Numbered from the stretch's first letter, positions 8,678 through 63,023 are shown. The stretch: DNA of 64,000 nt from Dehalococcoidia bacterium (GCA_965197585.1 OZ240215.1:928001-992000), one strand, 5' to 3'. Numbers and translations: made by a program. Notes: generated by a model from the sequence alone, not told the origin.

Positions 8678-9152
8678 GTACAGCTCCTGTCACCCTTGTT
8701 GTAATCTCTCTGTGCACCCCGCCCCTGGATTCACGCCAATGGCGCACTTACAGCCCGACTACTCGGGAATGACGGGGGGATGGTGGGAGAGGGGTGGGAG
8801 TAGAAAGCCAGGGCGTCTTCCATCGCCTGGGTGTCAGGGAAGAGTGCACGGGACCCGATGGGATGAGAAGATGGCGCCGGTCGCTTGTGCCGCGGGTCGC
8901 TAGGCGACCGTTGGGATGGGCTTAGGCGTTGAGTCCTCGGGTGGGTCGGGTGGGCTTCCCTGGGTGTTTGGTTCCTCCTTGAGATAGTTAGGTTGGTGTT
9001 CGAACGGTGAGGATAATAGCACTAATGTTCAGGTAGGATCAAGGGGTTCGTGTCACAGTTGGGGAGACACCGCCCCAGCCCCACAGGGGAACCCTCACCC
9101 CCTTGATCCCCCTCTCCCTTAGGGCCTTCAAGGGAGAGGGGGAGAGAAGAAC

Positions 9153-9192
9153 AGAGGGATACGTTGGCGCAGACGCGCCAACGTATCCCTCT
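9153..9192. repeat. Perfect 18-bp inverted repeat within a REP cluster
   Basis: AGAGGGATACGTTGGCGC-agac-GCGCCAACGTATCCCTCT. Confidence 0.8.
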
Positions 9193-9217
9193 AGTTCGGT
9201 ACTGGGGGAAAGGGGAT

Positions 9218-9244
9218 GGATTCCCGATCGGGGTCGGGAATGAC
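9218..9244 (+). repeat. REP-like family 1 (GGATTCC..hairpin..GGAATGAC), intact copy
   Basis: GGATTCCCGATCGGGGTCGGGAATGAC; related copies at 8727-8773, 37394-37465, 48207-48255 and 62904-62952 all carry a 22-nt insert. Confidence 0.75.
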
Positions 9245-9304
9245 GGGGGGGTGGGGGGTGATGTCACTCCTCTATCTGAACGAGATAGGGGTACAACGAC
9301 ATGA

Positions 9305-9332
9305 TTGACAGTTAAGGATGGCGTCGTATCAT
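9305..9332 (+). promoter_or_regulatory. Sigma70-type promoter of the first M24 gene
   Basis: TTGACA-16 nt-TATCAT, conserved upstream of the paralog (10567-10594). Confidence 0.7.
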
Positions 9333-9360
9333 TCGGGCAGCCGTTTCCACCGGAGGACAT

Positions 9361-10524
9361 ATGTCAGAGCCAACCATTTACTTCACCCGAGAAGAGTTCG
9401 CCGAACGCCAGGCCCGAGTCAGGGCAGCGCTGTCCGAGCAGGGTCTAGAGGGGATGCTGCTGTTCAAGATCGAAGACATGTACTGGCTCAGTGGCCTCGA
9501 CACGCAGGGCTGGAAAATCTTTCACGCCATGTATATAGGGGTGAACGGAGAACTGACTCACATCACCCGCTCTGCCGATGTCCCCAGCATCGAATATTCC
9601 TCGGTGTGTGACGACGTGCATCTCTGGGTGGACAGTCTGGATAACTCTCCAATGAACGCGGTAAGGAAGGTGCTGGAAAGGTTCAACGTGAAAGGCAAGC
9701 GTATTGGCGTACAGCACGACACCTACGGCCTCTCCAGCAAGATGGGACAGGAATTGGCCGCGGCGGTCGGCGGCTACTGCGAGCTCGTTGATGCCTCAGA
9801 CATCATCCGCCTGATGAGGGTTGTGAAGAGCCCCCAGGAGCTCGAATACATCCGGCATGCGGGAAAGATTATGGACCAGGTCATGGCCAAGGCCATTGAT
9901 ATGACCAAGGCAGGGGTGTACGAGGGCGATATCTGGGCTGAGCTGTACGGCATCGTATTGAGGTCGGGCGGCGATCCTCCGGCGGCCCACTGGCCCGTTG
10001 GATCCGGCAAGAAGGCAATGCTTGTGCGCTACGCCACGGGTCGGGGCACGGTTGGAGAGAACGACCAGGTAACATATGAGATTGGCTGCGGCTACCGACA
10101 CTATCACGCGGCCAACATGACTGCCGTTGTAACCGGCCCGAATGTCGATGATCGGCACCGCAGAATGCACGAAGCCTGCCTGGCTGCCCTGGAAGGCGTG
10201 CAAGGGGCACTCAGGCCCGGCAACACCGTCGGAGATGTGTTTGAAGCCCACGTCAAAGCATTCACCAAGCACGGGTATGGACATGCACTGCTGAATGCCT
10301 GCGGCTATACCATGGGGGCTACCTGGTCGCCATCCTGGATGGAGCAGCCGCTGATTCTAAGAAATAACCCCCACGTCATCGAACCTAACATGACCTTCTT
10401 CACCCACATGATACTGGTAGACCGGGAGTCGAGACTGACCATGTCTCTCGGAGAGCAGGTCATAGTCCAAGAAGATGGAGTTGAGGTCATTACACACGTG
10501 CCCCACGAGTTGGTCGTGAACTAA
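9361..10524 (+). CDS. M24 family hydrolase (creatinase/ectoine hydrolase DoeA-like)
   Basis: Creatinase_N-like start (FTREEFAERQARVR), RVVKSPQELEYIR, YRHYHAA, GYTMG..W.P.WME, EPNMTFFTH. Confidence 0.85.
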   Translation: MSEPTIYFTREEFAERQARVRAALSEQGLEGMLLFKIEDMYWLSGLDTQGWKIFHAMYIGVNGELTHITRSADVPSIEYSSVCDDVHLWVDSLDNSPMNAVRKVLERFNVKGKRIGVQHDTYGLSSKMGQELAAAVGGYCELVDASDIIRLMRVVKSPQELEYIRHAGKIMDQVMAKAIDMTKAGVYEGDIWAELYGIVLRSGGDPPAAHWPVGSGKKAMLVRYATGRGTVGENDQVTYEIGCGYRHYHAANMTAVVTGPNVDDRHRRMHEACLAALEGVQGALRPGNTVGDVFEAHVKAFTKHGYGHALLNACGYTMGATWSPSWMEQPLILRNNPHVIEPNMTFFTHMILVDRESRLTMSLGEQVIVQEDGVEVITHVPHELVVN

Positions 10525-10566
10525 GCAGCACAAGTCTGTTCTGCTTAATTGGCGCGTGAAAGGCGA

Positions 10567-10594
10567 TTGACAGTCCAGCGTGGCGTCGTATGAT
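10567..10594 (+). promoter_or_regulatory. Sigma70-type promoter of the second M24 gene
   Basis: TTGACA-16 nt-TATGAT, homologous to 9305-9332. Confidence 0.7.
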
Positions 10595-10622
10595 TCGGGG
10601 AGCCGTTCCATAGGGAGGACCC

Positions 10623-11786
10623 ATGCCGGAACCTACGATTTACTTCACCAGGGAAGAGTTCGCCGAACGCCAGGCCCGAGTCAGGGCAGCGCTGTCCGAG
10701 CAGGGCCTCGAAGGGATGCTGCTCTTCAAGATTGAGGATATGTACTGGCTGTGCGGGCTCGACACCCAGGGCTTCGTCATTTTCCACGCCATGTATATTG
10801 GTGTGAACGGAGAGCTTACACACATCACCCGGTCGGCGGATGTGCCCAGCATCGAATACTCGTCGGTCTGCGACGACGTACATCTCTGGGTGGACAGTTT
10901 AGGTAACTCTCCATTCAATTCGGTTCGGGAGGTGCTGGAAAGGTTCAACCTGAAGGGCAAACGGATCGGTGTCCAGCACGACACCTACGGCCTCACCAGC
11001 AAGATGGGCCGGGACTTGGCCGCCGCGGTAGGAGACTATTGTGAGCTGGTCGACGCCTCGGACATGATCAGGCTAATGAGAGTGGTAAAGAGTCCAAAGG
11101 AACTCGAATACATTCGAGAGGCAGGAAAGATCATAGATCAGGCGATGGCGAAGGGTATTGAGTTGACACGGGCCGGGGCGTATGAAGGCGATATCCTTGC
11201 CGAGATGCACAGCATCATCTGGAAAGCGGGCGGAGATCCTCCTGCCAGCCACTGGCCCGTGGGCTCCGGCGACAAGGCCCTGCTGGTGCGCTATGCCACG
11301 GGTCGGGGCACGGTGAGTGAGAACGACCAGGTCACCTATGAGATCGCCTGCGGATATCACCACTATCATGCCGCCAACATGGCGGCCGTGGTCACCGGGC
11401 CGAGAGTCGACGATCGACACCGCCGCATGCACGAGGCCTGCCTGGATGCCCTGACCTCAGTCCAGGCGACCCTGAGGCCCGGCAATACCGTCGGAGATGT
11501 ATTCAAGGCCCATGCTGATGCTTACACAAGGCACGGATACGGCCACGCATTCCTGAAAGCATGTGGCTACACTATGGGTGCAACGTGGGCGCCCTCCTGG
11601 ATGGAGCAACCCATGATAGTGGGCGATAACCCGCTAGTGCTGGAACCCAACATGACCTTCTTCACCCACATGATCCTCGTGGACAGCGAGTCGGGGCTGA
11701 CCATGTCCCTGGGAGAGCAGTCGATAATCCATGAGGACGGCGTTGAGGTCATTACACACGTGCCCCATGAGTTGGTCGTGCAGTAG
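10623..11786 (+). CDS. M24 family hydrolase (tandem paralog)
   Basis: 387 aa, collinear with and highly similar to 9361-10524. Confidence 0.85.
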   Translation: MPEPTIYFTREEFAERQARVRAALSEQGLEGMLLFKIEDMYWLCGLDTQGFVIFHAMYIGVNGELTHITRSADVPSIEYSSVCDDVHLWVDSLGNSPFNSVREVLERFNLKGKRIGVQHDTYGLTSKMGRDLAAAVGDYCELVDASDMIRLMRVVKSPKELEYIREAGKIIDQAMAKGIELTRAGAYEGDILAEMHSIIWKAGGDPPASHWPVGSGDKALLVRYATGRGTVSENDQVTYEIACGYHHYHAANMAAVVTGPRVDDRHRRMHEACLDALTSVQATLRPGNTVGDVFKAHADAYTRHGYGHAFLKACGYTMGATWAPSWMEQPMIVGDNPLVLEPNMTFFTHMILVDSESGLTMSLGEQSIIHEDGVEVITHVPHELVVQ

Positions 11787-11831
11787 GGTAGCCTCAGGAC
11801 TTGGTAATCTCCGGGAACTAGGGAAGGAGTA

Positions 11832-12884
11832 GTGATGGGTGAAAATGGGCATGAACACAGCGGGGCACATCTCTTTGTAGGGCTGGCGGGAGAGACGGCT
11901 CCCGGCAAGCCGATAAACTCGGGGTTGTACAGGGTGCACCACGGGGCCGGTGGCTGGAACCTTGCGGTTTCAGGCCTGCCTCAGGCCCCGGAAGTAAGGG
12001 CTATCGTTCCCCACCCCTCCCGACACCGGACGGTTTATGCGGGGACGCAGGACGGCCCCTACGTCAGCGAGGACTGTGGGGACTCATGGGCTCGGGTGCC
12101 GGGTGTCGAGAGCGGCTTGCCCGTCTGGTCGATCCTGTTCGATCCTCGGGACCCTATGACAATGTATACAGGCGGCGAAGATGCCCAGGTCCATGCTAGC
12201 GCCGACGGCGGGGAAACCTGGACTCGTCTCTCTACGGAAATGCGATTTCCTGAGATTATGATGAGGCCGGGGGCGAATCCTGCGAAACGGCTCCTGATGA
12301 TGGGAGCCAGCCCGTTCGACCAGGAAATCCTGTACGGCGCTATCGAGGTGGGAGGGGTGATGCGGACTCGGGACGGAGGTAAATCGTGGGAGAACTTGAG
12401 CCACGGGATGTACCAGAGCGACCAGCCGGTAGACACTCACGGCGTCCTGGCGAGCAGCGTGAGCCCGGGGCTGGTGTTCTCCATAACCGGCGCAGGACTG
12501 TTCAGGAGTAGAGATGAGGGCGACCATTGGGGACACGTGCCGCTGCCTCCCCTGGACGTTACGGGGAGGCTGTACACCCGCGCCATTCAGGAGTCCCCGA
12601 GGGACCCGAAGGTCATCTGGGTAGGTGCTGGCAACGGCTTCGACGGCGACCTGGGTGGACTATTCAAAAGCGAGGATGGCGGTGAGACCTGGGCAAGTGT
12701 GGACATGGGAGTACGGCCGCCAAGCTCCATCTTCTGCATAGCATTCGACCGGTCTAACCCGGACCTGATGGCGTGCGCGGCGTATCAAGGGCAGGTGTAC
12801 GTGAGCGAGGACGGGGGTGTGTCATGGCAGGAACACCCTCTGCCACAAGGAGCGACGCAGGTCTACGCGCTGGCTTGGGCCTAG
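11832..12884 (+). CDS. BNR/Asp-box repeat beta-propeller protein
   Basis: Repeated SxDxGxxW motifs (SEDCGDSW, SADGGETW, TRDGGKSW, SRDEGDHW, SEDGGETW, SEDGGVSW). Confidence 0.85.
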   Translation: MMGENGHEHSGAHLFVGLAGETAPGKPINSGLYRVHHGAGGWNLAVSGLPQAPEVRAIVPHPSRHRTVYAGTQDGPYVSEDCGDSWARVPGVESGLPVWSILFDPRDPMTMYTGGEDAQVHASADGGETWTRLSTEMRFPEIMMRPGANPAKRLLMMGASPFDQEILYGAIEVGGVMRTRDGGKSWENLSHGMYQSDQPVDTHGVLASSVSPGLVFSITGAGLFRSRDEGDHWGHVPLPPLDVTGRLYTRAIQESPRDPKVIWVGAGNGFDGDLGGLFKSEDGGETWASVDMGVRPPSSIFCIAFDRSNPDLMACAAYQGQVYVSEDGGVSWQEHPLPQGATQVYALAWA

Positions 12885-13594
12885 CCCCGAGGGGCGTACC
12901 AGGAGTCACCTGCTGTCTGGATGAAATCAGCACTCTCTTCCAGGTCCTTGTGGGTGTCGACGGAGCGCCAGAATCGAGGGTGGAGCCTGGCCCCGCCGAG
13001 AAGGCCCTTTTCCACCAGGGCCGGGAAGACGTCCCGCTCCAGGCTTCCCTTCTCCGGCAGGTAGTCGAACACGTCCTGTGAGAGGGAGTAGAAGCCCGCG
13101 TTTATCCAGTGCGGCAGAAGCGGCTTCTCCCTGAAGGCAGTGACGAGTCCGTTGTCCTGCGCCTCGATGATGCCATACGGGGAGGGCAGGGGCACCAGCG
13201 CCAGCGCGGCGACCAGACCTTGATTTGATCTAAGACTTTCGCACCGCTGGGGGTTGATATCTGTGAGGACATCCCCATTACCGGCATAGAAGGGGCCACT
13301 AATGTCACCCTCGGTCATGGCGTTTCTCAGGGCGCCGGCGGTGCCGAGGGGCTCGTGCTCCATGGCATAACGGATGGAAACGCCGATGCCCGCGCCATCC
13401 CCCAGGACTGCCTGTACCTTATCAGCCAGGTGCCCGATGGACAGCACGAATTCCTCGACTCCGGCGTTCTTGAGCCATTCCATCTGCCACTGGATGATCG
13501 GCTTGCCGGCTACGGGGAGGAGGGGCTTGGGGGTGGAGTCAGTCAGGGGCCTGAGCCTCGAGCCCAGGCCCCCGGCCAGAATAATCGCTTTCAT
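12881..13594 (-). CDS. Sugar-phosphate nucleotidyltransferase family protein
   Basis: AIILAGGLGSRLRPLT..PKPLLPV, EPLGTAGAL, NGD, FREKP, INAGFY. Confidence 0.9.
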   Translation of the reverse strand: MKAIILAGGLGSRLRPLTDSTPKPLLPVAGKPIIQWQMEWLKNAGVEEFVLSIGHLADKVQAVLGDGAGIGVSIRYAMEHEPLGTAGALRNAMTEGDISGPFYAGNGDVLTDINPQRCESLRSNQGLVAALALVPLPSPYGIIEAQDNGLVTAFREKPLLPHWINAGFYSLSQDVFDYLPEKGSLERDVFPALVEKGLLGGARLHPRFWRSVDTHKDLEESADFIQTAGDSWYAPRG

Positions 13595-13668
13595 AGGGTG
13601 AGTGGGGTCTCTGAGAGACCATGACGACAGTCTAGTCGGGTCACCCTGTCACCCTTACATATCGTGCC

Positions 13669-14814
13669 TTATACGCCATTAGTGGCTGCGCCGTTGCGGA
13701 GCCGGTTTCCGTAGAGCGCCTTGGAGTTGTCCCACAGAATTTTCCGCCGGTGGCTGTCCTCCAGGGGTTGGGCCAGGAACTTGTCCACCGAGCCGGGGAA
13801 GGGCGCGTCGGGGTGGGGGTAGTCGGTGTTGAAAACGATGTTATCGCCGTCCAGCCACTCGACTGCGGAGCGCAGGGTGCCTTCGTCAGGGTCGCAGGCG
13901 ACGAAGCACTGGCGCATGAAATACTCACTAGGTTTTAAGGGCATGTGGTGACCCTGTAGGAAAACGCCCTGGCGGCCGGGGCCGTGGTCGTCCATCCGGG
14001 AGAGCCAGAAGGGAGTCCAACCGGCATTTGCTTCGTAGAAGCCACAGCGCATGTTCGGGAATTTCTCCAGCACGTCACCGAATATCAGGTCGCCAATGGA
14101 TAGCATGCAGTCAACGGGGAAGGATATGGCATGACTCACGGAGTAAAGCTGCCCAGTATAGTCGCCGAACAGGCGCTGTTGGGCTCCGCCACCGTGGAAT
14201 GCGGCGGTGATGTCGTGCTTAGTGATCGCTTCCCAGAGAGGAGTGAAGTTGTCGTCAGACCAGTGCTGGCCCGCGCCGTCATCCCCGAATCCCATGAGCA
14301 TGATACCAGCCACCTCGGGTGTGGGGGCGACCCGGCTAATCTCTTCTACGGCGAGGCCGATGTCCTTGAGCGTGATCTGCGCTATGTACTGGACCCGGCC
14401 TTCGGAGGGGCGGCAAAAGTCCTCGCACCATCGGTTGTAGGCTCGGCACAGGGCTGCCTGAAGGCTGAAGTCGGTAATATGAGCGGACGTAGCGACACTT
14501 CCGTTAGTGGGGAAGCAGACCTGGTTGTCCACGCCATCCTGGTCCAGGTGGGCGAGGCGGGTATCGAGGCTCCACCAGGAGCGGTAGGCGTCGCCATAGC
14601 GCTCCTCCATGTCCGCGAAGACCGAATCTTCGTAGATGACTGAATGGCCTTCGGGGAAGGCCTCGCAGGGATCGTAGCTGTAAATGGCGCGTCCCAGGTG
14701 ACCACTGACCTTGGGTATGCGTTCACGGTAGGCGGGTTCGGTGTAGGTGGCCCAAATGTCCATCGGTTCCTGCATGTGGCCGTCGCCGTCTATTACACGA
14801 AAGCCGTTTTTCAT
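13669..14814 (-). CDS. Amidohydrolase_2 family protein
   Basis: IDGDGHMQEP, AFHGGG, YEANAGW, NTDYPHPD. Confidence 0.85.
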   Translation of the reverse strand: MKNGFRVIDGDGHMQEPMDIWATYTEPAYRERIPKVSGHLGRAIYSYDPCEAFPEGHSVIYEDSVFADMEERYGDAYRSWWSLDTRLAHLDQDGVDNQVCFPTNGSVATSAHITDFSLQAALCRAYNRWCEDFCRPSEGRVQYIAQITLKDIGLAVEEISRVAPTPEVAGIMLMGFGDDGAGQHWSDDNFTPLWEAITKHDITAAFHGGGAQQRLFGDYTGQLYSVSHAISFPVDCMLSIGDLIFGDVLEKFPNMRCGFYEANAGWTPFWLSRMDDHGPGRQGVFLQGHHMPLKPSEYFMRQCFVACDPDEGTLRSAVEWLDGDNIVFNTDYPHPDAPFPGSVDKFLAQPLEDSHRRKILWDNSKALYGNRLRNGAATNGV

Positions 14815-14946
14815 AGCCTCACACCTCCGTTGCTTGCTCCAGGGCCTTACGTGGCATTAGACCATTGGGAATGTCGGGTGTCAACGGATTCTCGGGGGGC
14901 GGGGGTTGACATATAATCGACGGAGTCACTTTGGAGAGGAGACGGA

Positions 14947-15612: not shown

Positions 15613-15913
15613 GCGGTCAGAGAGTCCTGCGAGTCTAGGGTCGGAAGGCCGGAAGCACTCTCTCCAAGCAGACGGAGGCAGTTCAAGGCCTGCTCTCCCC
15701 CAAGACCCGCGGTCTGTTAGAAGAACATGATGTGGGTAAAGCCTATGTCCATGAGCTTCTGAACTTCCCGGGTGACCGTCTCCGGGCTCAGGGGCCAGGC
15801 GGGCAATTAGAGGGAATGTGTGTATGTGCCCTCGTCTGTGGATGGCCGGCTTTAGCACTTGCGGGTGAGTTCCCGGCCGTGGGAACATAATGGCCTTGGA
15901 GGAAGGACTGACA

Positions 15914-18006: not shown

Positions 18007-18013
18007 GACAGCT

Positions 18014-33747: not shown

Positions 33748-33857
33748 TGGGGTGGCCTGTTGTTAGGGCCTCTTCCGGCGCTAGGAACACCCTCACTCTC
33801 CTCGGCGAGCCTACGGCCCTAGCCCTCTAACGCGCTGGTGCATCTACGGCCCATCAA

Positions 33858-35491: not shown

Positions 35492-35594
35492 AGGGGGGAG
35501 GGTATTCAGTTGTGGGGGAATGAGATGGGGGTGAGGTCGGTTAGGCAGTCTCCTTAGTTGGCTGAGAAGGGGGACGAGGTGAGGATGAGGGTTG

Positions 35595-35894
35595 CCAGCG
35601 CTCCCTCTGCGGCCCGGGACGGGGCGTGGGAAATCATCTGCGGGTAAGCGCAGGCATCCGCATCTACGCCGGTGAGGGCGGAGCGGGAAATCATCCGCGA
35701 CGTATAGCCGCAGGCATCCGCATCTACGCCAAGGGAGGCGGAGCGGGAAATCATCCGCGATAAAACGCGGGCATCCACGGTCGTGGGGCAAGCTCGCATG
35801 GGGTATGAGCCGTGGGTAATCATCCGCGGCGAGGGTACGCGGGCATCCGCAGCGTTGTGGCGTTGCGGGGAAGTGGGCCGAGAGGGAGCGCTGG
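35595..35894. repeat. Inverted-repeat-bounded array of four hairpin units with variable loops
   Basis: Terminal IR CCAGCGCTCCCTCTGCGGCCC / GGGCCG-AGAGGGAGCGCTGG; units GGGWAATCATCYGCG-N6..9-CGCRGGCATCC start at 35628, 35685, 35745 and 35814. Confidence 0.7.
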
Positions 35895-36285: not shown

Positions 36286-37341
36286 TGTGGATGTCAGGTA
36301 ATTCGTTGACAGAATTAGGTGGATTTAAGGGTCTCCAAAGGGGTCTTTCCGTCCATTGCCTGGTGGGGTCTCTGAGTATTGTAGTAGATCAGGTATTGCT
36401 GAAGCTCGTCCTTCAGTTCCGAGACCGATTCGAAGGTTGTCCCCTCCAGCAGGTCCTCGTTCAAGGTTCTCCAGAACCGCTCTATCTTCCCGTTGGTCTG
36501 GGGCCTATAGGGTCGGGTGTAGCGGTGCTTTATGCCCAGCTCATTGAGCATCCGTTCCATGGGGTGGCCCTCGGTGTTCCTTGGGGAGGCCATCTCGGGG
36601 CCGTTGTCGGTGAGGATGGCCTCGAATTGGATGCCGTACTCCACGTTAAGGAAATTGATGGACTTCAGAGTAGCAAACATAACGGAGAGACTCTTGATGT
36701 CTCCGACCACTTCGGCCCAGGCCAGACGGGTGTAGGCGTCGATGAGGCCCACCAGGTAGTAGCGGTGCTTGGTGCCCACGATGGTATCCCGGCTGAGGTA
36801 GTGGCTGTCCAGGTGGCCCAGCTCTCCTGCCCGGGTCTTGATGATCTTGCGCTTCGACTGCTGCATCGGCTTTGTGAGCCTATTGAAACCGTGGCGTCTG
36901 GTGATGGCGTAGATGGTGGAGGGCTTAGGGGTGTTGTGTTTAAGGATGGGTTTGAGTATGGCATAGATCTCGTAACGGTTGGTACCGTTAAGGCGCTCGT
37001 TGATGACCTTCTGCTCAATGTAGGGCAGGGTGCGGCGGGACTTCCACCCGGGACCCCGCTTACGGGGGAGGAAGGCGTTGTCGGAGGGGGAGAGGAGGAA
37101 CCGGTTGTAGTACTTGGCGAAGGTCTGACGGCTAGTGCCGTGGAAGGAGTAGAAGTCCTGGGCGAAGCGGAAACGGGGATGCTTCCCTGCCTTGACCAGT
37201 TGATACTCATGGATGAGGAACCGCCACTTCTGAATGTAGTTACGTTCAAGGGTGAGGTCCTTGCTATTGTCTCGCATTCTCGCCTCCAGATTGGTGTTGG
37301 CCTCTTATACCAATCTGTCAACGAATTACCTAACACTTACA
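36286..37341 (-). mobile_element. IS481-family insertion sequence, copy A (1056 bp)
   Basis: TGT...ACA ends with IRs containing AGGTAATTCGTTGACAG; single DDE transposase; near-identical inverted copy at 46723-47778. Confidence 0.92.
36315..37277 (-). CDS. IS481-family DDE transposase (integrase core)
   Basis: GELGHLD, IDAYTR, ILTDNGPE, RPYRPQTNGKIERFWRTL, YN..RPH. Confidence 0.92.
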   Translation of the reverse strand: MRDNSKDLTLERNYIQKWRFLIHEYQLVKAGKHPRFRFAQDFYSFHGTSRQTFAKYYNRFLLSPSDNAFLPRKRGPGWKSRRTLPYIEQKVINERLNGTNRYEIYAILKPILKHNTPKPSTIYAITRRHGFNRLTKPMQQSKRKIIKTRAGELGHLDSHYLSRDTIVGTKHRYYLVGLIDAYTRLAWAEVVGDIKSLSVMFATLKSINFLNVEYGIQFEAILTDNGPEMASPRNTEGHPMERMLNELGIKHRYTRPYRPQTNGKIERFWRTLNEDLLEGTTFESVSELKDELQQYLIYYNTQRPHQAMDGKTPLETLKST

Positions 37342-37561
37342 CTCCCGCAATAGACGGATCTGCGACAGGGTGAGCGGCCCCACCCCTGGGGATGGATTCC
37401 GGCTCTCGGCGCATGCCAAAGGCGTATCTTCGACATCTTCGTCCGGCTCTCGGTAGCGGGGATGATCCGCCTAAGTCGGACAGGCTCCCCTCATGGGGAT
37501 GGGGTGGGGGTGTGCTATCATGTCGAGCGAAAAATCGGGAGCAAACGAGAAGGAGAAACAG

Positions 37562-39256
37562 ATGACCACGGCTGCAAAATTCGACGTTAGGCATCGGAGC
37601 AGAATTGTCGCGGACGGGCCGGACCGGGCGGCGGCTCGGGCGATGCTAAGGGCGGTCGGCGTCGGGGACAAGGAGTTTGAGCAGCCGTTCATCGGGGTGG
37701 CGAACACGGCGTCGGATGTTACGCCATGCAACGTGCACCTGGACAAGCTGGCGGAGCGAGTCAAGGCGGGTGTGAAGTCGGCGGCGGGTACGCCCTTCGA
37801 GTTTGGGGTGCTGACCGTGAGCGACGGGATATCGATGGGTACGGAGGGGATGAAGGCGTCGCTGGTGAGCCGGGAGCTGATCGCCGACTCCATTGAGTTG
37901 GTCTCCCACGGCGAATACTTCGACGGCCTCGTGACGATTGCGGGCTGCGACAAGAATCTGCCGGGGGCGATGATGGCCGCGGCACGGCTGAACATTCCGA
38001 CAGTCTTCCTATACAGCGGTACGATAATGCCCGGCAGATACGCCGGAAGAGACATCAGTATCCAGGATGTTTTTGAGGCCATAGGCGCGCATAGCAAGGG
38101 CCGGATCAGCGACTCCGATTTGAAGGACATCGAGTGTGCGGCGTGCCCGGGAGCGGGGTCGTGCGGGGGGATGTTTACGGCCAACACCATGTCCTCGACC
38201 ATCGAGGCTATGGGTATGGCACTGCCGGGGGCGTCGTCGGAGCCGGCGGTGGAAGAAGGGATATTGCAGAAGTCGTACGAGGCAGGCCGGACTGTGATGA
38301 GGCTGTTGGAACAGGGGATAAGGCCTCGAGACATCCTGACTAAGGAAGCGTTCGAAAACGGGATTGCAGTCGCTGTATCGATGGGCGGCTCAACTAACGT
38401 CGTTCTCCACCTACTAGCCATAGCTTACGAAGCCGGGGTGGACCTCAGCATCGAGGACTTCCACAGGATCAGCGAGCGCACGCCGTATATCGCGGACATG
38501 AAGCCAGGAGGCCGGTACCTCATGGTCGATCTGCACCGGGAAGGCGGCGTCCCGACGGTCATGAAGCGGCTCCTGGACGCAGGACTGCTGCACGGGAGTG
38601 CGATGACGGTTACGGGCAAGACTGTCGAGGAGAACTTGGCGGATGTGGAGATTCCGACCTCCGGCAAGGTAGTCCATCCCGTGGCCGAGCCCCTGAGTCC
38701 TCACGGTTCCATGGTGATACTGAAGGGTAATCTCGCACCCGAGGGAGCGGTGGTGAAGTTGGCTCATCCGGAGGATCTGAGCAAGGTCCACCGGGGCCGG
38801 GCGAGGGTGTTCAACAGGGAGCAGGACGCCTTCCGAGCCGTGGACAACCAGGAAATTGTGGCAGGAGACGTAGTCGTGCTGCGCTACGAGGGGCCCAAGG
38901 GCGGGCCCGGAATGAGGGAGATGCTCCACGTGACCGCCGCCATTGTAGGGCAGGGGCTGGGGGAGGACGTGGCTTTGATAACCGACGGCCGGTTCTCGGG
39001 GGCGACGCAGGGGTTCATGGTTGGGCACGTGGCTCCGGAGGCGATGGTCGGTGGGCCGATTGCGGTGGTTAAGGAAGGCGACACGATTGTCCTTGACATC
39101 CCCAACGCCCAGCTCAACCTGGACATTTCACAAGAAGATTTTGACCGGAGGCTGGCGGCGTGGGTCCCGATTCCGCCGAACTACACAACGGGTGCGCTGG
39201 CGAAATACGCCAAGCTGGCGACTTCCGCGTCTCAGGGGGCGGTGACGATGGGGTAG
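37562..39256 (+). CDS. ilvD: Dihydroxy-acid dehydratase
   Basis: [72 protein letters not shown]; AAGGAG RBS before ATG 37562. Confidence 0.95.
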
Positions 39257-42254: not shown

Positions 42255-42466
42255 GGGTCACCTGCTTTGGGGTGGGGTGTGGGGGGGATGTTACAACATT
42301 TTTTGGAGGGGTGGGGGGTATCGGTTTGGCTGTCCGGGGGTCTCCTCCCGTTTGACGCTTCGAGAGCCTCACGCCTGAGACGGATCTGCGACAGGATGAG
42401 CGGCCCCGCACCTGGATTCGGGTGAGGAGTGTGAGGGTATGGCTGTCGGGGACCGCCCCCGCTCGA

Positions 42467-45563: not shown

Positions 45564-46700
<1,137 letters not shown>

Positions 46701-46722: not shown

Positions 46723-47778
46723 TGTAAGTGTTAGGTAATTCGTTGACAGATTGGTATTCAATGGGTAAACCAATCTGGGGGCGAAGATGCGAGACAACAG
46801 CAAGGACCTCACCCTTGAACGTAACTACATTCAGAAGTGGCGGTTCCTCATCCATGAGTATCAACTGGTCAAGGCAGGGAAGCATCCCCGTTTCCGCTTC
46901 GCCCAGGACTTCTACTCCTTCCACGGCACTAGCCGTCAGACCTTCGCCAAGTACTACAACCGGTTCCTCCTCTCCCCCTCCGACAACGCCTTCCTCCCCC
47001 GTAAGCGGGGCCCCAGGTGGAAGTCCCGCCGCACCCTGCCCTACATTGAGCAGAAGGTCATCAACGAGCGCCTTAACGGTACCAACCGTTACGAGGTCTA
47101 TGCCATACTCAAACCCATCCTTAAACACAACACCCCTAAGCCCTCCACCATCTACGCCATCACCAGACGCCACGGTTTCAATAGGCTCACAAAGCCGATG
47201 CAGCAATCGAAGCGCAAGATCATCAAGACCCGGGCAGGAGAGCTGGGCCACCTGGACAGCCACTACCTCAGCCGGGATACCATCGTGGGCATCAAGCACC
47301 GCTACTACCTGGTGGGCCTCATCGACGCCTACACCCGTCTGGCCTGGGCCGAAGTGGTCGGAGACATCAAGAGTCTCTCCGTTATGTTTGCTACTCTGAA
47401 GTCCATCAACTTCCTCAATGTGGAGTACGGCATCCAATTCGAGGCCATCCTCACCGACAACGGCCCCGAGATGGCCTCCCCAAGGAACACCGAGGGCCAC
47501 CCCATGGAACGGATGCTCAATGAGCTGGGCATAAAGCACCGCTACACCCGCCCTTATAGGCCCCAGACCAACGGGAAGATAGAGCGGTTCTGGAGAACCT
47601 TGAACGAGGACCTGCTGGAGGGGACAACCTTCGAATCGGTCTCGGAACTGAAGGACGAGCTTCAGCAGTACCTGATCTACTACAATACTCAACGACCCCA
47701 CCAGGCAATGGATAGAAAGACCCCTTTGCAAACCCTTAAATCTCTCTACTGCTGTCAACGAATTACCTGACTTCTACA
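46723..47778 (+). mobile_element. IS481-family insertion sequence, copy B (1056 bp), with 5-bp target duplication GGAAT
   Basis: GGAAT|TGTAAGTGTTAGGTAATTCGTTGACAG...CTGTCAACGAATTACCTGACTTCTACA|GGAAT. Confidence 0.93.
46787..47770 (+). CDS. IS481-family DDE transposase
   Basis: About five substitutions relative to copy A, plus a short C-terminal extension into the IR. Confidence 0.92.
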   Translation: MRDNSKDLTLERNYIQKWRFLIHEYQLVKAGKHPRFRFAQDFYSFHGTSRQTFAKYYNRFLLSPSDNAFLPRKRGPRWKSRRTLPYIEQKVINERLNGTNRYEVYAILKPILKHNTPKPSTIYAITRRHGFNRLTKPMQQSKRKIIKTRAGELGHLDSHYLSRDTIVGIKHRYYLVGLIDAYTRLAWAEVVGDIKSLSVMFATLKSINFLNVEYGIQFEAILTDNGPEMASPRNTEGHPMERMLNELGIKHRYTRPYRPQTNGKIERFWRTLNEDLLEGTTFESVSELKDELQQYLIYYNTQRPHQAMDRKTPLQTLKSLYCCQRIT

Positions 47779-48173: not shown

Positions 48174-48304
48174 GGGAGGGTATGATACTACGGATGGGGC
48201 GGGGATGGATTCACGCCAAAGGCGCATCTTTGACCGGCTCGGGGGCCGGAATGACGTGATAACGGGACGGTGGGTAGGGGAACAATTTCAAAAGGGAGAA
48301 AAAT

Positions 48305-55487: not shown

Positions 55488-55529
55488 GACCGGCGTTTCG
55501 AGGTACATACGAATGCTGAAATCGCCGAG

Positions 55530-56717: not shown

Positions 56718-56731
56718 GGTCGGGGAGAGGG

Positions 56732-57913: not shown

Positions 57914-57941
57914 TTCGGCTCTCCTGGGAGGGGTGCGGGTG

Positions 57942-58715
57942 TCAGCGGCCTTTGAAGTCGGCGGGACGTTTCTCTGCGAAGGCCCTCGGGCCTTCCTTGG
58001 CGTCCTCGGTGGTCATGAGAACCTGCTGTATGGCCTCTTCCATCCGGAGGCCGTGATCAAGGGGCATATACTGGGACCGGACGGCGAGCTCCTTGATGGC
58101 CCTGACGGCGAGGGGGCCGTTCTTGCAGACCACGTCGGCCATTCGCTCCGCCTCGTCCATGAGCCCCGATAGAGGGACCACCTTGTTGACGAGGCCGTAC
58201 TGGTAAGCTTCCTGGGCGGTGAGGCGTTCACCGGAGAGGAGGAGCCACATGGCGACTGGGTAAGGGAGCTGTCGCAGGGTGCGCTGGGTGCCTCCGTTGC
58301 CGGGCAGGATTCCGCGCTTTACCTCTGAGAGACCGAATTGGGCGTTCTCGGCTGCAACCCGGAGGTCGGTGGCGAGGAGGAGTGTCATGCCCCCGGCGAG
58401 GCAGTAGCCGTTAACGGCGGCAATAACAGGTTTCCAGACCTCAAGGCCACGGTTGAGAATCTGCTCATCCTGGGTCTGCCAGAAGCGCCACTTCTCTTGC
58501 TCTCGGGGGATTGTTTTTTTGAGGTCGGCCCCGGCGGTGAAGGCCCGGTCTCCGGCGCCGGTGATGATGGCGCACCAGACATCGGGGTCATCCCTGACGT
58601 CGACCCAAGCCTCGGAAAGCGCCAGGTACATCTCGGGGTCCATGGCGTTCATGACCTCGGGTCGGTTCAGGGTGATATAGGCAATTTTGCCTTTCTTTTC
58701 ATATATCAGGGACAT
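57942..58715 (-). CDS. Enoyl-CoA hydratase
   Basis: AFTAGADL, KPVIAAVNGYCLAGG, FGLSEVKRG, EGPRAFAEKR. Confidence 0.92.
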   Translation of the reverse strand: MSLIYEKKGKIAYITLNRPEVMNAMDPEMYLALSEAWVDVRDDPDVWCAIITGAGDRAFTAGADLKKTIPREQEKWRFWQTQDEQILNRGLEVWKPVIAAVNGYCLAGGMTLLLATDLRVAAENAQFGLSEVKRGILPGNGGTQRTLRQLPYPVAMWLLLSGERLTAQEAYQYGLVNKVVPLSGLMDEAERMADVVCKNGPLAVRAIKELAVRSQYMPLDHGLRMEEAIQQVLMTTEDAKEGPRAFAEKRPADFKGR

Positions 58716-58741
58716 GTCGGGGCTCCTTGTGGGGGGTGGGG

Positions 58742-59152
58742 CTAGGGGCGGGGACGGAACTTGGGCAAAGTGATTTCTTCAGTCACGTCGTCCCAGACAA
58801 CTTCTACGGATAGGCCTGGGCGGATGTCGTCGTTATCGATCTCTACGAGGTTGGTTAGCAATCGAGGGCCTTCTTCAAGCTCGACGATAGTTACGTTGTA
58901 AGGCAGGTCGTCTTCGAAGGCTCTGCTATAGCGCTGGTGCACGACAATCCAGGAGTAAACGCTACCGCGTCCCGAGGCCTCGACCCAATCGTGGTCGGCG
59001 GACCAGCACTCGGGGCAAATGGGCGCGGCGTCCCTAAGATGTCCACACTTTGAGCAGCGTTGGAGAAGGAGCTTGTGTTGCTTGCAGCCCTCCCAGAAGG
59101 GTCGGTTGTCCTCGGTGAGCTCGGGCGGGGGTTTGGCGTAGTCGGTGGTCAT
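58742..59152 (-). CDS. DUF35 Zn-ribbon/OB-fold protein (ChsH2-like)
   Basis: PFWEG, QRCSKCG...CPEC, G.VYSW, VELEEGPR. Confidence 0.9.
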   Translation of the reverse strand: MTTDYAKPPPELTEDNRPFWEGCKQHKLLLQRCSKCGHLRDAAPICPECWSADHDWVEASGRGSVYSWIVVHQRYSRAFEDDLPYNVTIVELEEGPRLLTNLVEIDNDDIRPGLSVEVVWDDVTEEITLPKFRPRP

Positions 59153-59155
59153 GGG

Positions 59156-60286
59156 CTATCTCCGCAAGATCGCCGTGGCGTGGGTGTGCATGATTCCGCC
59201 CTGGCCGCTGACCAGGGCCGTCTCGGCGCCATTAACCTGCCGGTCGCCGCATTCGCCTCTAAGCTGCCGCACACCTTCGACGAGGAGCTGCATTCCAGCC
59301 ATGCCGCTTTCGGAGAGGAGGCCGCCGCCGGTGTTCATGGGTAGGGAGCCGTCGGGGCCCGTGCGTCCGTCGGCGACGAACGCTCCGCCCTCGCCCTTGG
59401 CACAAAAGCCGTAGTCCTCCAGGGTGATGATGGGGACGATGGTGAAGCAGTCGTATATCTCGCAGACGTCGATGTCTCCGGGCTCGATGCCCGCCATACG
59501 GAAGGCCTTTTCGCCGGAAATCTTGGCTCCGCTGGTGGTGAGGGTGGGACGGCGGGGGAGGTCCCAGGCGATATGGTGCTGGCCGATGCCCATGACGTAG
59601 ACGGGAGGCTTGCGGAGGTGTCGGGCCCGGTCGGCAGAGGTGACAACAACGGCAGCCCCGCCGTCGGAGACTAGGCAGCAGTCCAGGAGATGGAGAGGCC
59701 AGGTGACATAACGAGAGGCTTGGTGGTCTTCCAGGGTCAAGGGATCGCGCTTGTGCGCGTTGGGGTTCTTGGAGGCCCAGCCTCGTGTGGAAACAGCCAC
59801 GGCGCCAAGCTGCTCGCTGGTGGTCCCGAACTCGGTCATGTGACGTTGGGCGATCATGGCGTAGCCGCCGGGAGCCCCGATCATGCCGTAAGCGGCGTCG
59901 GTACCGACGGGTCGGCCGTAGGTGCCGGGATTGCCGGAAAGGGGGTTGTCGCCGTAGCAGCAGACGGCGGTGGTGATGAGACCCGCCTCGATGGCCATTA
60001 TTGCGTACTGGACGAGGCCGAGATTCGTCGCACCCGCCTGGTCGATTGTCGCCGCTATGACGGGCTGGATGCCGAGAGCCTGGGAGACCTTGTGTGCCCA
60101 TAGGCCCTTGAAGCCTGTCGGGGGGTACTTACAGAGGACGGCGTCGACGTCGTTCTTTTCAAGGCCGGCGTCCTCGATTGCGAGCTTGGCGGCCTCGACG
60201 GTGAATTGGAGGGGGGAGACGCCCGGGACGCGGCCAAACTTGGTGGTCGCCGCCCCGACGATACAGTACTTGTCTTTGAGGGACAT
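59156..60286 (-). CDS. SCP-x-type thiolase-like protein (Ltp2-like)
   Basis: PLHLLDCCLVSDGG, EIYDCFT, P.NTGGGLLS; adjacent to a DUF35 partner. Confidence 0.88.
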   Translation of the reverse strand: MSLKDKYCIVGAATTKFGRVPGVSPLQFTVEAAKLAIEDAGLEKNDVDAVLCKYPPTGFKGLWAHKVSQALGIQPVIAATIDQAGATNLGLVQYAIMAIEAGLITTAVCCYGDNPLSGNPGTYGRPVGTDAAYGMIGAPGGYAMIAQRHMTEFGTTSEQLGAVAVSTRGWASKNPNAHKRDPLTLEDHQASRYVTWPLHLLDCCLVSDGGAAVVVTSADRARHLRKPPVYVMGIGQHHIAWDLPRRPTLTTSGAKISGEKAFRMAGIEPGDIDVCEIYDCFTIVPIITLEDYGFCAKGEGGAFVADGRTGPDGSLPMNTGGGLLSESGMAGMQLLVEGVRQLRGECGDRQVNGAETALVSGQGGIMHTHATAILRR

Positions 60287-60357
60287 CAGCTTTGTCCTCC
60301 GTTTCGGAGAGGTGAGGGCGTTTGCGAATCTATTGTGCCATTAAGGGGGCCGGTTGG

Positions 60358-61614
60358 CTATTTCCGGGTGACCGGGACGAGGGGAGCGACGCCGTCGGTA
60401 TGGAGGACCTCAGCAGTCTCGGACGGGAGGCCCAGAAGGTTGTCGAGCACCCAATCGCTGTGTTCCGCAAAGAGAGGAGCACGGCGGCCCAAGTCGGCGA
60501 GGGGCCCAGAGGACTTGAAAGACACGCCGGGGTGCTTGAAGTCTCCGGCCTCGGGGTGGTGCGTGTGGTCGATGAAGCCACGGGCCTGGTATTGGGGATC
60601 GGCGAGGGCGTCGGTGGACTTGAGGACTGCCCCCGCCCTGATCCCTGCGGCCTGGAGATGGTGCATCACCTCCTGGGGCGTACGCTCGATGGTCCATTTC
60701 TCAATGAGCGAATCTAGCGTGTCCTGGTCTTGGAGTCGGGCCGACATAGTGGAAAAGCGGTCGTCGGTTTTCCAATGGGCGTTGCCGGTGGCATCGCAGA
60801 GGCTGTCGAACTCGGCATCAGAGGCTACGGCTATGACGACCCAGGCGTCGTCGTCCTTACACCGGTAGACGTTGTGGGGGGCCATGGAAGGGTGCCGGTT
60901 GCCGATGCGGGTCGGGGCCCGGCCCGTGAGCTGATATTCGAGAAAATACTCGCCGATCACGGCCATTGTCACGTCGCGAAGCACTATTTCAAGGCGCTTG
61001 CCCTGGCCTGTGCGTCGTCTCTTCCATATTGCGGCCATGATGGCGGTGGCAACATGGAAGGCGGAGGTCTGGTCGCTGTAGAAGTTGCCGGGCTTGCTGG
61101 GTGCACCGTCCTGGTAGCCGGTGACGTGGCACATGCCGCCCAACCCCTCCGTACCGGGCCCGAAGGATATGTGATTGCTCCACGGGCCGGGCCGCCCGAG
61201 GGCCGGCATGGCGACCATTATTAGGTCGGGGCGGAGGGTGCGAAGGTGATCGTAGGTGAGGCCAAGATTGGGCATGACACGGGGGCTGTAGTTTTCGATT
61301 ACTACGTCGCTGATGAAGACAAGCTCCTCGAACAAGGCCTTGCCGTGAGGGTCGGCGAGGTCCAGGGAGAGGCTGCGTTTGGCGCGGTTGACCTCGTTAA
61401 AGCCTGCATTCTTGTTATAGGAGCGCTCCTGCGACTTGTCGGAAGTGAAGATGGCCATGTTGCCGACGCTGCGGCCCCAGGGGAGTTCAATCTTGATGAT
61501 TTCCGCTCCAAGATGGGCGAGCACCCGAGTGGCTACGGGCCCGGCTATTACGTTCGTCAGGTCCAGAACGCGGACGCCGGTGAGGGGAAGGATGCGTTTT
61601 GCATCGGTGCGCAT
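60358..61614 (-). CDS. Family III CoA transferase (CaiB/BaiF)
   Basis: PLTGVRVLDL...AGP, LGAEIIKIE, NRAKRS, DVVIENY, FYSDQ (catalytic-position Asp), GNRH...APHNVYRCKD. Confidence 0.92.
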   Translation of the reverse strand: MRTDAKRILPLTGVRVLDLTNVIAGPVATRVLAHLGAEIIKIELPWGRSVGNMAIFTSDKSQERSYNKNAGFNEVNRAKRSLSLDLADPHGKALFEELVFISDVVIENYSPRVMPNLGLTYDHLRTLRPDLIMVAMPALGRPGPWSNHISFGPGTEGLGGMCHVTGYQDGAPSKPGNFYSDQTSAFHVATAIMAAIWKRRRTGQGKRLEIVLRDVTMAVIGEYFLEYQLTGRAPTRIGNRHPSMAPHNVYRCKDDDAWVVIAVASDAEFDSLCDATGNAHWKTDDRFSTMSARLQDQDTLDSLIEKWTIERTPQEVMHHLQAAGIRAGAVLKSTDALADPQYQARGFIDHTHHPEAGDFKHPGVSFKSSGPLADLGRRAPLFAEHSDWVLDNLLGLPSETAEVLHTDGVAPLVPVTRK

Positions 61615-61616
61615 GG

Positions 61617-62843
61617 CTAGATAATACCTTGCTCCTGGAGGTGGGCAATCTCGGCGTCAGATAAGGCGAGGGTTTCGCGGAGAACCTCGGTGGTGTGCTC
61701 TCCTAGAATAGGTGCCCGGCTAGGCGATTCATCCTTGGCCCAAGGCGCCAGTGGCGTGCCGGGATATTTGAGGTTTCCCGCGACGGGGTGATCGGCCTCA
61801 CGGAAGAAGGTGCGGGCCTCGTTCTGGGGATCGGACATGACCTCTGGGATGGACTGGACCTTGGTGAATGGTATGCGCAGCTCTTGGGAGAGCGCGTAGA
61901 CCTCTTGGCGGGTCAGGTCTTTCATCCAGTCGACGACCAGTTCGTCAATCTCGTCGGCGTGGCCCGCCATTGCAGTCATCAGGTCATCCTCGGCGAGACG
62001 GTCGTTGCCCGTGAGCGTTGCGAGACCATCCGGGAATGAGGGGGAGTAGTGGATGTGCATCCAGCCGTCCTTGCAGGGGAGGAGGGTGGAAGGGTAGGGG
62101 GCGCGATGGCTGGTGTGGATGAGCCGAGTGCCCTGCCGGCGGGGGAGGACGTTCTCGCGCTCGAACAAGGAGTAGTAAGAGACGCCTTCGAATGTGGAAG
62201 CTATAGCCTCGACGGTCGAAACATCGACGTATTGCCCTTCGCCGGTGAGGTCTCGGTAGTTGAGGGAGGCGAGAACAGCCATGGCGGCGGAGATGCCCCC
62301 GTGGTACTCGGACTGGTAGCCACCGGCCTTGAGTGGTTCACGGTCGGAGTCGCCTGTAATGTACATGTATCCGCTGAAAGCATAGGCCACGATCTCCGAG
62401 CCCTCATATTGGTTGTACGGGCCCTCCTGACCGAAGTATGAGATGGAGGCCATTATCAGCGTCGAGTTGATCTCCGACAGGCTTTCGTAGCCCAGCCCCA
62501 GCCCCGAGAGATAGCCGGGTTTGAAGGACTCAATGATGACGTCTGACTCGGCGATTAGGCACTCTACGATGGGCCGGGCCTCGGGGCGGGCGATGTCAAG
62601 GGTGATGCTCTTCTTGCCCTGGTTGAGATAAAGGAAGGGGGCCGAGGTCTCGGGGTTGGGATCGTCGTGGAGGAAGGGGCCCAGGGACCGGGTGTCGTCT
62701 CCCGTGCCTGGAGGCTCGATTTTGATAACCTCGGCGCCGAGGTCCCGGAGCATCTTGGTGCAGTAGCCGCCTGAGAGCCCGAGGCTCAGGTCAAGGACTT
62801 CAATTCCTTGGAGGGGTCTTTCGGGTGGGGTGGGCGAATTCAT
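61617..62843 (-). CDS. Family III CoA transferase (CaiB/BaiF), partner subunit
   Basis: PLQGIEVLDL, LGAEVIKIEPPG.GD..R, NQGKKSITLD, AP.LGEHT; start set at ATG 62843. Confidence 0.9.
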   Translation of the reverse strand: MNSPTPPERPLQGIEVLDLSLGLSGGYCTKMLRDLGAEVIKIEPPGTGDDTRSLGPFLHDDPNPETSAPFLYLNQGKKSITLDIARPEARPIVECLIAESDVIIESFKPGYLSGLGLGYESLSEINSTLIMASISYFGQEGPYNQYEGSEIVAYAFSGYMYITGDSDREPLKAGGYQSEYHGGISAAMAVLASLNYRDLTGEGQYVDVSTVEAIASTFEGVSYYSLFERENVLPRRQGTRLIHTSHRAPYPSTLLPCKDGWMHIHYSPSFPDGLATLTGNDRLAEDDLMTAMAGHADEIDELVVDWMKDLTRQEVYALSQELRIPFTKVQSIPEVMSDPQNEARTFFREADHPVAGNLKYPGTPLAPWAKDESPSRAPILGEHTTEVLRETLALSDAEIAHLQEQGII

Positions 62844-63023
62844 AGGTTGGGTGGGAGGATAGGCGATGGGTGGATGTTGTGCAAGCGGGGCAAATGGGGG
62901 GATGGATTCACGCCATAGGAGCATCTGCGACCGGCTCGGGGGCCGAGATGACGGTGTGATTGAAGAATGGGGCGGAGAGTATTACCCTTGTCGCACGTTG
63001 TTAACTTCGGAGGGAGGGCTGGT

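Follow-up and report, generated by a model that had tools for sequence, protein, structure and literature searches.

To our knowledge, there is only one detailed description of repeats of about 20 nt with the behavior of insertions, namely that of the small dispersed repeats (SDRs) of the Nostocaceae. The SDRs reportedly measure 21–27 nt, and those of Nostoc punctiforme and its relatives are said to insert into one another. Their description is credited to Elhai et al. 2008 (Genome Res 18:1484) in PMC5861425, PMC3116915 and PMC2884548. Another type of small repeat, the repetitive extragenic palindromic (REP) sequence, is a GC-rich extragenic stem-loop of 20–40 bp with a short tag at one end, which occurs in high copy number and in clusters; the word 'nested' is absent from that account (PMC3733652). 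Here, a short insert that recurs inside REPs is described from a window of 64,000 nt, that is, bases 928,001–992,000 of the single-contig genome of a Dehalococcoidia bacterium (GCA_965197585.1, OZ240215.1; 3,429,519 bp, 59.3% G+C). Positions are counted from the first base of this window unless stated otherwise.

A first-pass annotation of the window had noticed a micro-insert of 21–22 nt in three unrelated REP families and had proposed either an ultra-small mobile unit or a fixed-length scar left by a REP-targeting element. From the analysis presented here, the micro-insert is probably a family of non-coding insertion units of 20–23 nt, akin to a miniature REP or an SDR, which are non-autonomous and move via a single-stranded intermediate with the help of an enzyme acting in trans. 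The annotation also knew of no described element class of this size. The unit is not a new class, however: very small mobile repeats, the SDRs, have already been described, and REPs themselves measure 20–40 bp. For the comparison within the genus, which is uncultured, nine genomes were used, that of the window (G000) and those of eight other species (G001–G008). Three of these (G002, G003 and G005) share about 91–94% DNA identity with the window.

The unit as a discrete, all-or-none block

On its written strand the unit begins with a head and continues into a tail of nine bases. The former has the form x-CGCC, a loop of 2–4 bases and GGCG-y, and the latter reads A-YY-T-N-Y-RR-C. Good units of types I and II were defined by at most one mismatch to this pattern, which yielded a set of 160. 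Most of these are 21 nt (84 units) or 22 nt (71 units) long, the others 20 nt (3) or 23 nt (2). The head is of the A...C type in 69 units, C...G in 67 and G...C in 10; the two main tail types are ATCTNCGAC and ACTTNCAGC, and the units typically end in CGAC (79), CAGC (59) or CGGC (10). The set contains 111 distinct sequences, and identical units recur in up to three unrelated host contexts. Next to the roughly 160 good type I/II units, the genome total comprises about 36 matches of a diverged relative with a ATGTTCCA tail (type III) and about 30 of another, TCTCCTCAGCGAGCCTACGGC (type IV), whose filled host sites compare with 44 empty ones.

The pattern CGCC-N(2-4)-GGCG-S-AYYTNYRRC gave 102 matches in the genome and 0 for its backwards control. 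A relaxed pattern gave 207 matches; when applied to the reversed genome it gave 57, and to three simulations under a Markov-3 model 55–63. Such sequence patterns were adopted because a purely structural scan for a hairpin plus tail, which was dropped, missed the type I units and barely rose above its controls (122 vs 55–73). An nhmmer profile of the 22-mer has too little power and returned no match below E = 0.01. No Rfam match at gathering score was obtained in the window, and none that is credible in 8100–9450. No CRISPR array is present in the genome, and there is therefore no tie of the unit to CRISPR repeats.

The length of the insert was measured in six host REP families as the spacing of two fixed anchors, one on either side, without knowledge of the insert itself. 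These distances are quantized at 0, 20–23, 42–44 or 62–65 nt with almost nothing in between, which bears out the near-fixed length noticed earlier. Empty, single and double copies number 65, 21 and 9 in family 4, 21, 6 and 4 in family 3c, and 97, 5 and 1 in family 5. The anchors define 73 inserts of 20–23 nt, of which, by our count from the list, 67 are the unit (47 in register, 12 shifted and 8 degenerate). The remaining six are other sequence, three of them a tandem duplication of the host loop. In family 1, the intact form GGATTCCGGC is found 56 times genome-wide and the form followed by an insert, GGATTCACGCC, 25 times, double and triple stacks included. It was thereby shown that the unit is a discrete block, which is either present as a whole or absent.

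A second kind of 21–22-nt insert was observed in the register of families 2/4. In this case, AGGACATGCTTCGA...CTC, the loop of the host REP is duplicated in tandem. The insert is present at genome positions 1577911, 2229634 and 2872142 of G000 and also in G004, G006 and G008, the latter two being species nearly without the hairpin unit.

For 102 of the 160 units, the joined flanks exist elsewhere in the genome as a paralogue that runs across the junction without the unit, and in many cases 88–90 of 90 nt are matched with 95–98% identity and 0 gaps. In the filled/empty pairs that were printed, flanks of 45 + 45 nt match, the exact unit is the sole difference and no target duplication is seen. 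The earlier observation that deletion of the insert restores the host REP holds for the units with such a paralogue; at 37345 the left half of the host is missing. The constant orientation was also recovered, as the units are inserted only one way relative to their host.

With regard to the hosts, three families proved to be a strong underestimate. There are 130 distinct 7+7-nt contexts, which by our own grouping represent roughly 15–20 host registers. One host can be used in several registers: in family 5, type I is found after AGATTC and type II after AGATTCCTC. Across the 130 contexts, the written strand of the unit starts directly 3' of a pyrimidine, mostly after TC: C (61%) or T (36%) occupies position -1, where purines do not occur, T is found at position -2 in 59%, and no consensus is present downstream of the insertion point. 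Set against the IS200/IS605 elements, which insert without duplication 3' of a fixed short motif, the picture is mixed: a duplication is lacking and a pyrimidine is constant at -1, but there is no fixed tetranucleotide. DNA folding of the host REPs placed the insertion point in the stem in some families and in the loop in others, and no constant structural position emerged.

That the insert lies outside coding regions is only roughly true. Judged from a crude map of open reading frames (ORFs), 60 of the 160 units do fall in ORFs; the 36 of these with 0 mismatches were inspected, and the ORFs concerned are short or terminal and the flanks are those of REPs. Flanks with repeated 11-mers on both sides were found for 74% of the units and about 10% of random sites, a noisy measure that carries little weight, as about 50% of random sites already have such a flank on one side.

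Empty orthologous sites exist as well. The family-3 REP at about 33.8 kb carries neither of its units in G005, the first only in G002 and both in G000 and G003. The family-2 REP at about 42.3 kb is filled in G003 and empty in G005, G002 and G001. Within the genus, the unit pattern gave 102, 159, 90, 159, 143 and 84 matches in G000 to G005, respectively, and 60 in G007, as opposed to 6 in G006 and 4 in G008. Outside the genus, 192 genomes were searched; there were 0 matches in three other genera of the family and 0–3 in 189 genomes sampled from the class, like the backwards control. Empty host REPs, on the other hand, are found in all nine genus genomes (42–127 of family 5 and 52–136 of families 2/4 in each). 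Since the hosts are present in all nine and the units are few in two of them, and since the orthologous states vary, the unit is separate from its hosts. The registers in use also differ: none of the 143 units of G004 occupies that of families 2/4, which is used 12–13 times each in G000 and G003. Seven host registers combined contain 127 filled and 375 empty sites. The REP clusters themselves turn over as whole blocks between species.

Nesting, fold and strand of the unit

Units are frequently found inside one another. When 191 units were excised and the sequence was rescanned, 19 further well-formed outer units appeared, followed by one more in a third round. In these 20 exposed outer units, the inner copy is located at the head|tail junction (16 cases), just ahead of the final base in a type III unit (3) or in the head loop (1). 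Nests two and three deep result from this preference of the insertion for the head|tail junction of an existing unit.

For the pairing test, positions p2, p3, p7 and p8 of the tail were left free (269 matches). The recurrent states are TC/GA (80 matches), CT/AG (57), TG/CA (10), CG/CG (8) and CC/GG (8), with at most 4 matches for each other state. All five recurrent states are Watson-Crick at p2-p8 and p3-p7. Both tail pairs are Watson-Crick in 168 of the 269 matches, compared to a mean of 48.5 and a maximum of 69 after shuffling. The complementary strand of the unit has the order 5'-G-(2 bp)-GNA-(2 bp)-T-(5-bp GC stem, 2–4 nt loop). It was thus shown that this strand combines a GNA-triloop mini-hairpin with a GC hairpin, the outer pair of which is G·T or C-G, and that both helices covary. 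The 69 heads of the A...C type contain an A·C mismatch on the written strand and form a G·T pair on the complementary strand only.

According to PMC13037366, only GNA loops among GCNNNGC fragments give an unusually stable, nuclease-resistant DNA mini-hairpin, and mini-hairpin sequences are known in single-strand replication and priming signals. A GNA loop is present in 152 of the 160 units, with two of its three letters fixed by the search pattern. The triloop is closed by freely covarying Watson-Crick pairs, which places it among the GNA mini-hairpins; in the predicted fold of the unit, TC/GA, CT/AG or CC/GG takes the place of the canonical GC/GC stem.

A covariance model was built from the complementary strand of seven window units and used to search 420 kb from six other species, consisting of regions that were picked because earlier listings showed matches there. 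It returned 106 matches with 74 distinct sequences. In these species 96.9% of the cells are paired, as compared to 83.9% after shuffling (0 of 500 shuffles reach 96.9%), and the covariation score is 0.409 vs 0.183 for shuffled data and at most 0.053 when the partners are slid; these figures overstate independence, because the sequences share a kinship and had been aligned by fitting them to the model. Alternative pair states are plainly evident despite this kinship: U-A 41 vs C-G 28 at one pair, C-G 49 vs U-A 21 at another, and G·U 40 vs C-G 31 in the outer stem.

The unit also shows a strand bias. Local GC skew was computed from long ORFs only, and the written strand lies on the locally G-rich strand in 137 of the 160 units and in 116 of the 125 where |skew| >= 0.05. 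Gene orientation is about even genome-wide. As an observation on the genome as such, an unusually strong GC skew was noted, which reaches about -0.2 over 1.05–2.6 Mb of the genome; between 2.9 Mb and 0.65 Mb, across the coordinate origin, the skew is mixed. About 90% of the REPs are co-oriented with the local skew despite the balanced gene strands.

Copies in the window and neighboring elements

All copies quoted in the first-pass annotation lie on the plus strand where it had placed them, with host sites after GGATTC, after CTC and in a family-3 copy. Its list was incomplete, as it lacked a type III unit at 8230–8251 (plus strand). The latter, T-CCTCC-AGA-GGCGG-ATGTTCC-A and then TCTTCGAT, is located near the 5' end of a 1.1-kb non-coding repeat. 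Three type I units follow the GGATTC of a family-1 REP on the plus strand, namely at 8733–8754 (with a ACTTACAGC tail), at 48213–48234 and at 62910–62931. For the second of these, the entire filled REP is missing at the orthologous site in the other eight genus genomes compared. The orthologues of the third include a decayed copy in G005 and a nested double in G001. The filled family-1 REP at 48207–48295 gives way in its entirety to 36 other letters in contigs from two other public runs. Because this replacement matches the state of G002, G003 and G005, whole REPs are present or absent between strains.

The family-3 REP at 33.8 kb holds two units on the plus strand. The type IV unit TCTCC-TCG-GCGAG-CCTACGGC is inserted at CACCCTCAC|CCTAGCCCTC (33797–33817) and is absent in the G005 orthologue. 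The other, a degenerate type I unit at CCCTCT(C)|CC (33829–33850), is absent from the orthologous REP in G002 and G005 and present in G003. In family 4, a type I-like unit is found at GAGAGCCTC|AGGATGAGCGG (42371–42392, plus strand) and a degenerate type II-like unit precedes AGGGTGAGCGG (37345–37366, plus strand). In the latter case, the left half of the host is reduced to CTC because an IS481-like element ends at 37341. The nested pair at 37400–37443 (plus strand), which had been recognized before, could be resolved into its two copies. The outer copy comprises 37400–37412 and 37435–37443 of a family-1 REP, and the inner copy (37413–37434) is placed at its head|tail junction. An independent Logan contig (X12, from another public run) spans 37383–37978 with 0 differences.

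At 35648–35730, two motif copies 60 nt apart end in GCATCCGCATCTACGCC, which is tail-like. They sit in a tandem repeat that overlaps ORFs, and public contigs contain a 12-nt insertion nearby, at 35577.

Two types of insertion sequence (IS) that target REPs were found in the genome. The IS481-like element is present in 21 copies and has a 1,056-bp core with ends TGTAAG...CCACA and a single ORF of about 320–327 aa with an rve domain. It inserts almost only at GGAAT|GAC of REP families 1 and 5 and generates a 5-bp GGAAT duplication; by our reading of the printed flanks, 20 of the 21 copies have REP motifs on both sides. The copy at 36286–37341 (minus strand) targets REPs and is not the source of the unit; its atypical flank is probably due to a later rearrangement. 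Another copy at 46723–47778 (plus strand) is inserted at GGAAT|GAC of a family-5 REP with the 5-bp duplication. The IS110 family is represented by nine genes, encoding a DEDD transposase in an ORF of 349 aa, and two copies carry an in-frame TAG. The element has the ends TGTGTGACG...ACACAGTTGCT, and seven full copies were examined, each of which lies in a family-5 REP with CCT|AGATTCC as the insertion point. The copy of the window (45566–46698, minus strand) also lies in a family-5 REP, and its ends are unlike the unit.

The unit was considered as the joined ends or attachment site of IS110 or IS481, which is not supported since the termini and insertion points differ. A head...tail pair that encloses a longer cargo was not found in the genome. 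Twenty-seven heads without a tail were evaluated as a possible longer autonomous element, and all of them proved to be nests, degenerate tails or chance matches in genes.

The stretch at about 8185–9290 is a 1.1-kb composition of repeat modules and REPs, without an ORF of at least 150 aa and without a credible Rfam match. At the orthologous site only 0–30 nt are present in G003, G005 and G002, and a whole copy with 83% identity lies elsewhere in G005. The stretch has the look of a non-coding composite that is mobile. Within it, a module of about 250–450 nt (about 8808–9260) has an AGGAGG motif on the minus strand; each of the genus genomes searched, G008 among them, contains dozens of copies of it. 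This module could be a miniature transposable element with inverted repeats (MITE), a small ORF or an RNA.

Origin of the unit and comparison with known systems

In the mechanism that we propose, the unit would colonize other REPs and other copies of itself. It would move, or have moved, as a single-stranded nucleic acid, most likely as complementary-strand DNA in its compact two-hairpin form. Such an intermediate is suggested by the asymmetry of the fold, the lack of target duplication and the fixed orientation. The cutting and joining would be performed by an enzyme supplied in trans. The logic would resemble that of HUH/RAYT or IS200/IS605 systems, being structure-specific, strand-specific and free of duplication, although the enzyme would not be a recognizable Y1 transposase. 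A filled REP may then be copied further by whatever spreads or homogenizes REPs, which would explain why the sub-types are host-specific. The host REPs would already have existed when the family underwent its expansion, which would have taken place in one part of the genus. The ultra-small mobile unit of the first-pass annotation agrees with the filled and empty paralogues and orthologues, with the nesting, with the identical units in unrelated hosts and with the unit-poor congeners.

Several observations weigh against this mechanism. Genes for a Y1 HUH transposase (PF01797; RAYT/IS200 type) were found neither in the genome nor in any of 12 genomes of the family, in a search that gave matches in 6 of 14 reference genomes as a control; TnpB (PF07282) and reverse transcriptase (RVT_1) were not detected either. 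The sub-types of the unit are largely host-specific, and REP sequence next to the unit can differ as well. At 8733 the entire downstream hairpin differs from five empty paralogues, and at about 42.3 kb the adjacent loop is GAGAGCCTC in the filled and GACGGGGCTC in the empty state. The host-specific sub-types and these adjacent differences indicate that the copy number largely reflects spread or conversion of filled REPs, and most unit copies are probably not independent insertions. Each of the filled/empty differences may be an insertion or a precise deletion. The sequence words are present to a small extent only in public runs labelled sponge metagenome, from which no habitat is concluded. 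No 21–22-nt unit indel was seen among the best-supported differences listed for short Logan contigs of four public runs, which is no evidence either way, and current activity of the unit is not shown by these contigs. The pairing in the heads of types III and IV is poor. As for the strand bias, it is equal in empty (90%) and filled (87%) REPs; the bias thus belongs to the REP system as a whole and is silent on the insertion of the unit. The better-folding strand is the C-rich strand, by the usual skew rule the leading-strand template, which a simple IS608-like model would not predict. The cumulative-skew minimum lies at about 2.6 Mb and dnaA at 3.03 Mb of the genome, which leaves the origin uncertain; because of this disagreement, leading and lagging strands were given no firm assignment and only the local skew was used.

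Part of this evidence would be explained if there were no mobility at the level of the unit, and a few original units had been moved among REPs by microhomology template switching or gene conversion, with only whole REPs multiplying. Conversion accounts for the host-specific sub-types, and the whole-block turnover of REPs, the replacement of the filled REP at 48207–48295 in other strains, the adjacent differences at two loci and the lack of a detected transposase are all in line with it. We nevertheless regard this explanation as unlikely. The many unrelated registers offer no flank homology for conversion, since the 130 contexts share only the pyrimidine at -1. The lengths are all-or-none without partial copies, and the boundaries in long paralogue matches are exact with 0 gaps. 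Moreover, nesting occurs regularly at one internal junction, identical units are found in unrelated hosts, and G006 and G008 have full numbers of hosts with only 6 and 4 units. It is less probable still that the unit is mainly a selected functional module, either a single-strand DNA signal for priming or protein binding or a pair of RNA hairpins, for which spread would be secondary. The covarying helices, the conservation of the stems and GNA loop positions with the other loop letters free, the orientation bias that follows the GC skew and the mini-hairpins in replication and priming signals (PMC13037366) speak for such a role. Two congeners, however, are almost without units, about a quarter of the host sites are filled (127 vs 375 empty), and old copies decay by point mutation, such as the G005 orthologue of the unit at 62910. 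The recognition signal of a mobile unit would equally be expected to conserve structure.

The scar of the first-pass annotation, i.e. the footprint of an excised larger REP-targeting element (IS110, IS481 or other), is very improbable. The two REP-targeting IS families, with 9 copies of the IS110 type and 21 IS481-like ones, would provide candidates, but their ends, targets and insertion points are different, no head...tail pair with a long cargo exists, and neither regular nesting nor covarying helices are expected of a footprint. The genome is a metagenome-assembled chromosome, and an assembly artefact or library adapter had to be considered; this idea has already been refuted by the data across genomes. 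Diverged copies occupy orthologous sites in nine separately assembled genomes, the nested pair is identical in the independent Logan contig, the counts are lineage-specific and the backwards control is 0. A bolder alternative, which is conceivable though doubtful, takes the units as true micro-transposons that live on REPs as a parasite of a parasite, moving as a nuclease-resistant single strand of 21–23 nt, with a GNA mini-hairpin and a GC hairpin as its fold, which is cut and pasted by an enzyme family not yet linked to transposition. The novelty of the enzyme would follow from the lack of Y1, TnpB and reverse transcriptase genes. If true, congeners with 4–6 and with 60–159 copies on the same REP background could reveal the enzyme by comparative genomics, and the unsolved SDR elements of cyanobacteria might be explained as well.

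Our preferred reading, that of non-autonomous insertion units mobilized in trans, makes the genus a second, independent and very clean case of insertions of about 20 nt. It offers exact filled/empty pairs, regular nesting, a covarying strand-specific two-hairpin fold and unit-free host REPs in two sister species. The mover of a 22-nt element hereby becomes testable, by phyletic profiling and simple oligonucleotide biochemistry. In addition, the case shows that REPs can be colonized and that REP systems can thrive without a recognizable RAYT.

When compared to known systems, the unit shares with MITEs that it is non-autonomous, intergenic and present in high copy number. MITEs, however, measure at least 100 nt and have terminal inverted repeats and target-site duplications, none of which is seen in the unit, and it is thus not a member of this class. 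ISs of the IS1397/ISKpn1 type and IS110 likewise use REPs as specific insertion targets. In contrast to the unit, which is non-coding, 21–22 nt long and unrelated in sequence, those found here are coding elements of 1.06–1.13 kb with their own ends.

IS200/IS605 elements rely on pairing between a guide and the cleavage site, to which the short covarying pairing beside the cleavage end of the unit can be likened. Further similarities are the insertion directly 3' of what may be a short motif, the lack of target duplication, the strand specificity and the dependence on a hairpin. Nonetheless, these elements require TnpA (Y1), extend over hundreds of bases and have a subterminal hairpin on the left and on the right. 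In the unit, a single GC hairpin is joined by a 2-bp mini-hairpin, the genome gave 0 hits for PF01797 and PF07282, and the better-folding strand is located on the C-rich strand. Background on the HUH superfamily is found in bioRxiv 10.1101/279083.

The likeness to REPs, bacterial interspersed mosaic elements (BIMEs) and REP doublets forming hairpins (REPINs) is that the unit on its complementary strand consists of a tag and a stem-loop. It is a palindromic stem-loop within the 20–40 bp of REPs, and extragenic as judged from the crude ORF map. A terminal GTAG or CGTC is not characteristic of it, as GTAG occurs in the complementary tail of 23 of the 160 units and CGTC or GACG at the end of 0 of 160. 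In contrast to the RAYT-REP systems, the genome of the unit and the family of 12 genomes contain no RAYT/Y1 gene, which also sets it apart from the REPtrons (no PF01797 gene), and its stem is only 4–5 bp long. The units furthermore sit inside REPs and inside one another, and not side by side.

A search of the literature on nested REPs in Chloroflexi and on SDR5 gave nothing relevant. The SDRs themselves, in particular SDR4, SDR5 and SDR6 of N. punctiforme, reportedly resemble the unit in being very small, non-coding hairpin repeats that are dispersed and lie within other repeats. For both, mobility was deduced from the comparison of filled and empty sites, in one lineage and with no known enzyme. 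The unit is non-coding and falls within the reported range of about 21–27 nt, it forms insertions in otherwise conserved sequence, and its copies lie within repeats and within each other. The SDRs belong to the Cyanobacteria, whereas the unit belongs to the Chloroflexota (Dehalococcoidia), which makes it no SDR by taxon, and has REP hairpins as hosts. It also displays the two-hairpin fold with GNA triloop and the G·T strand asymmetry. Judged by these likenesses, the very small mobile repeats of the Nostoc cyanobacteria appear to be the closest described parallel of the unit.

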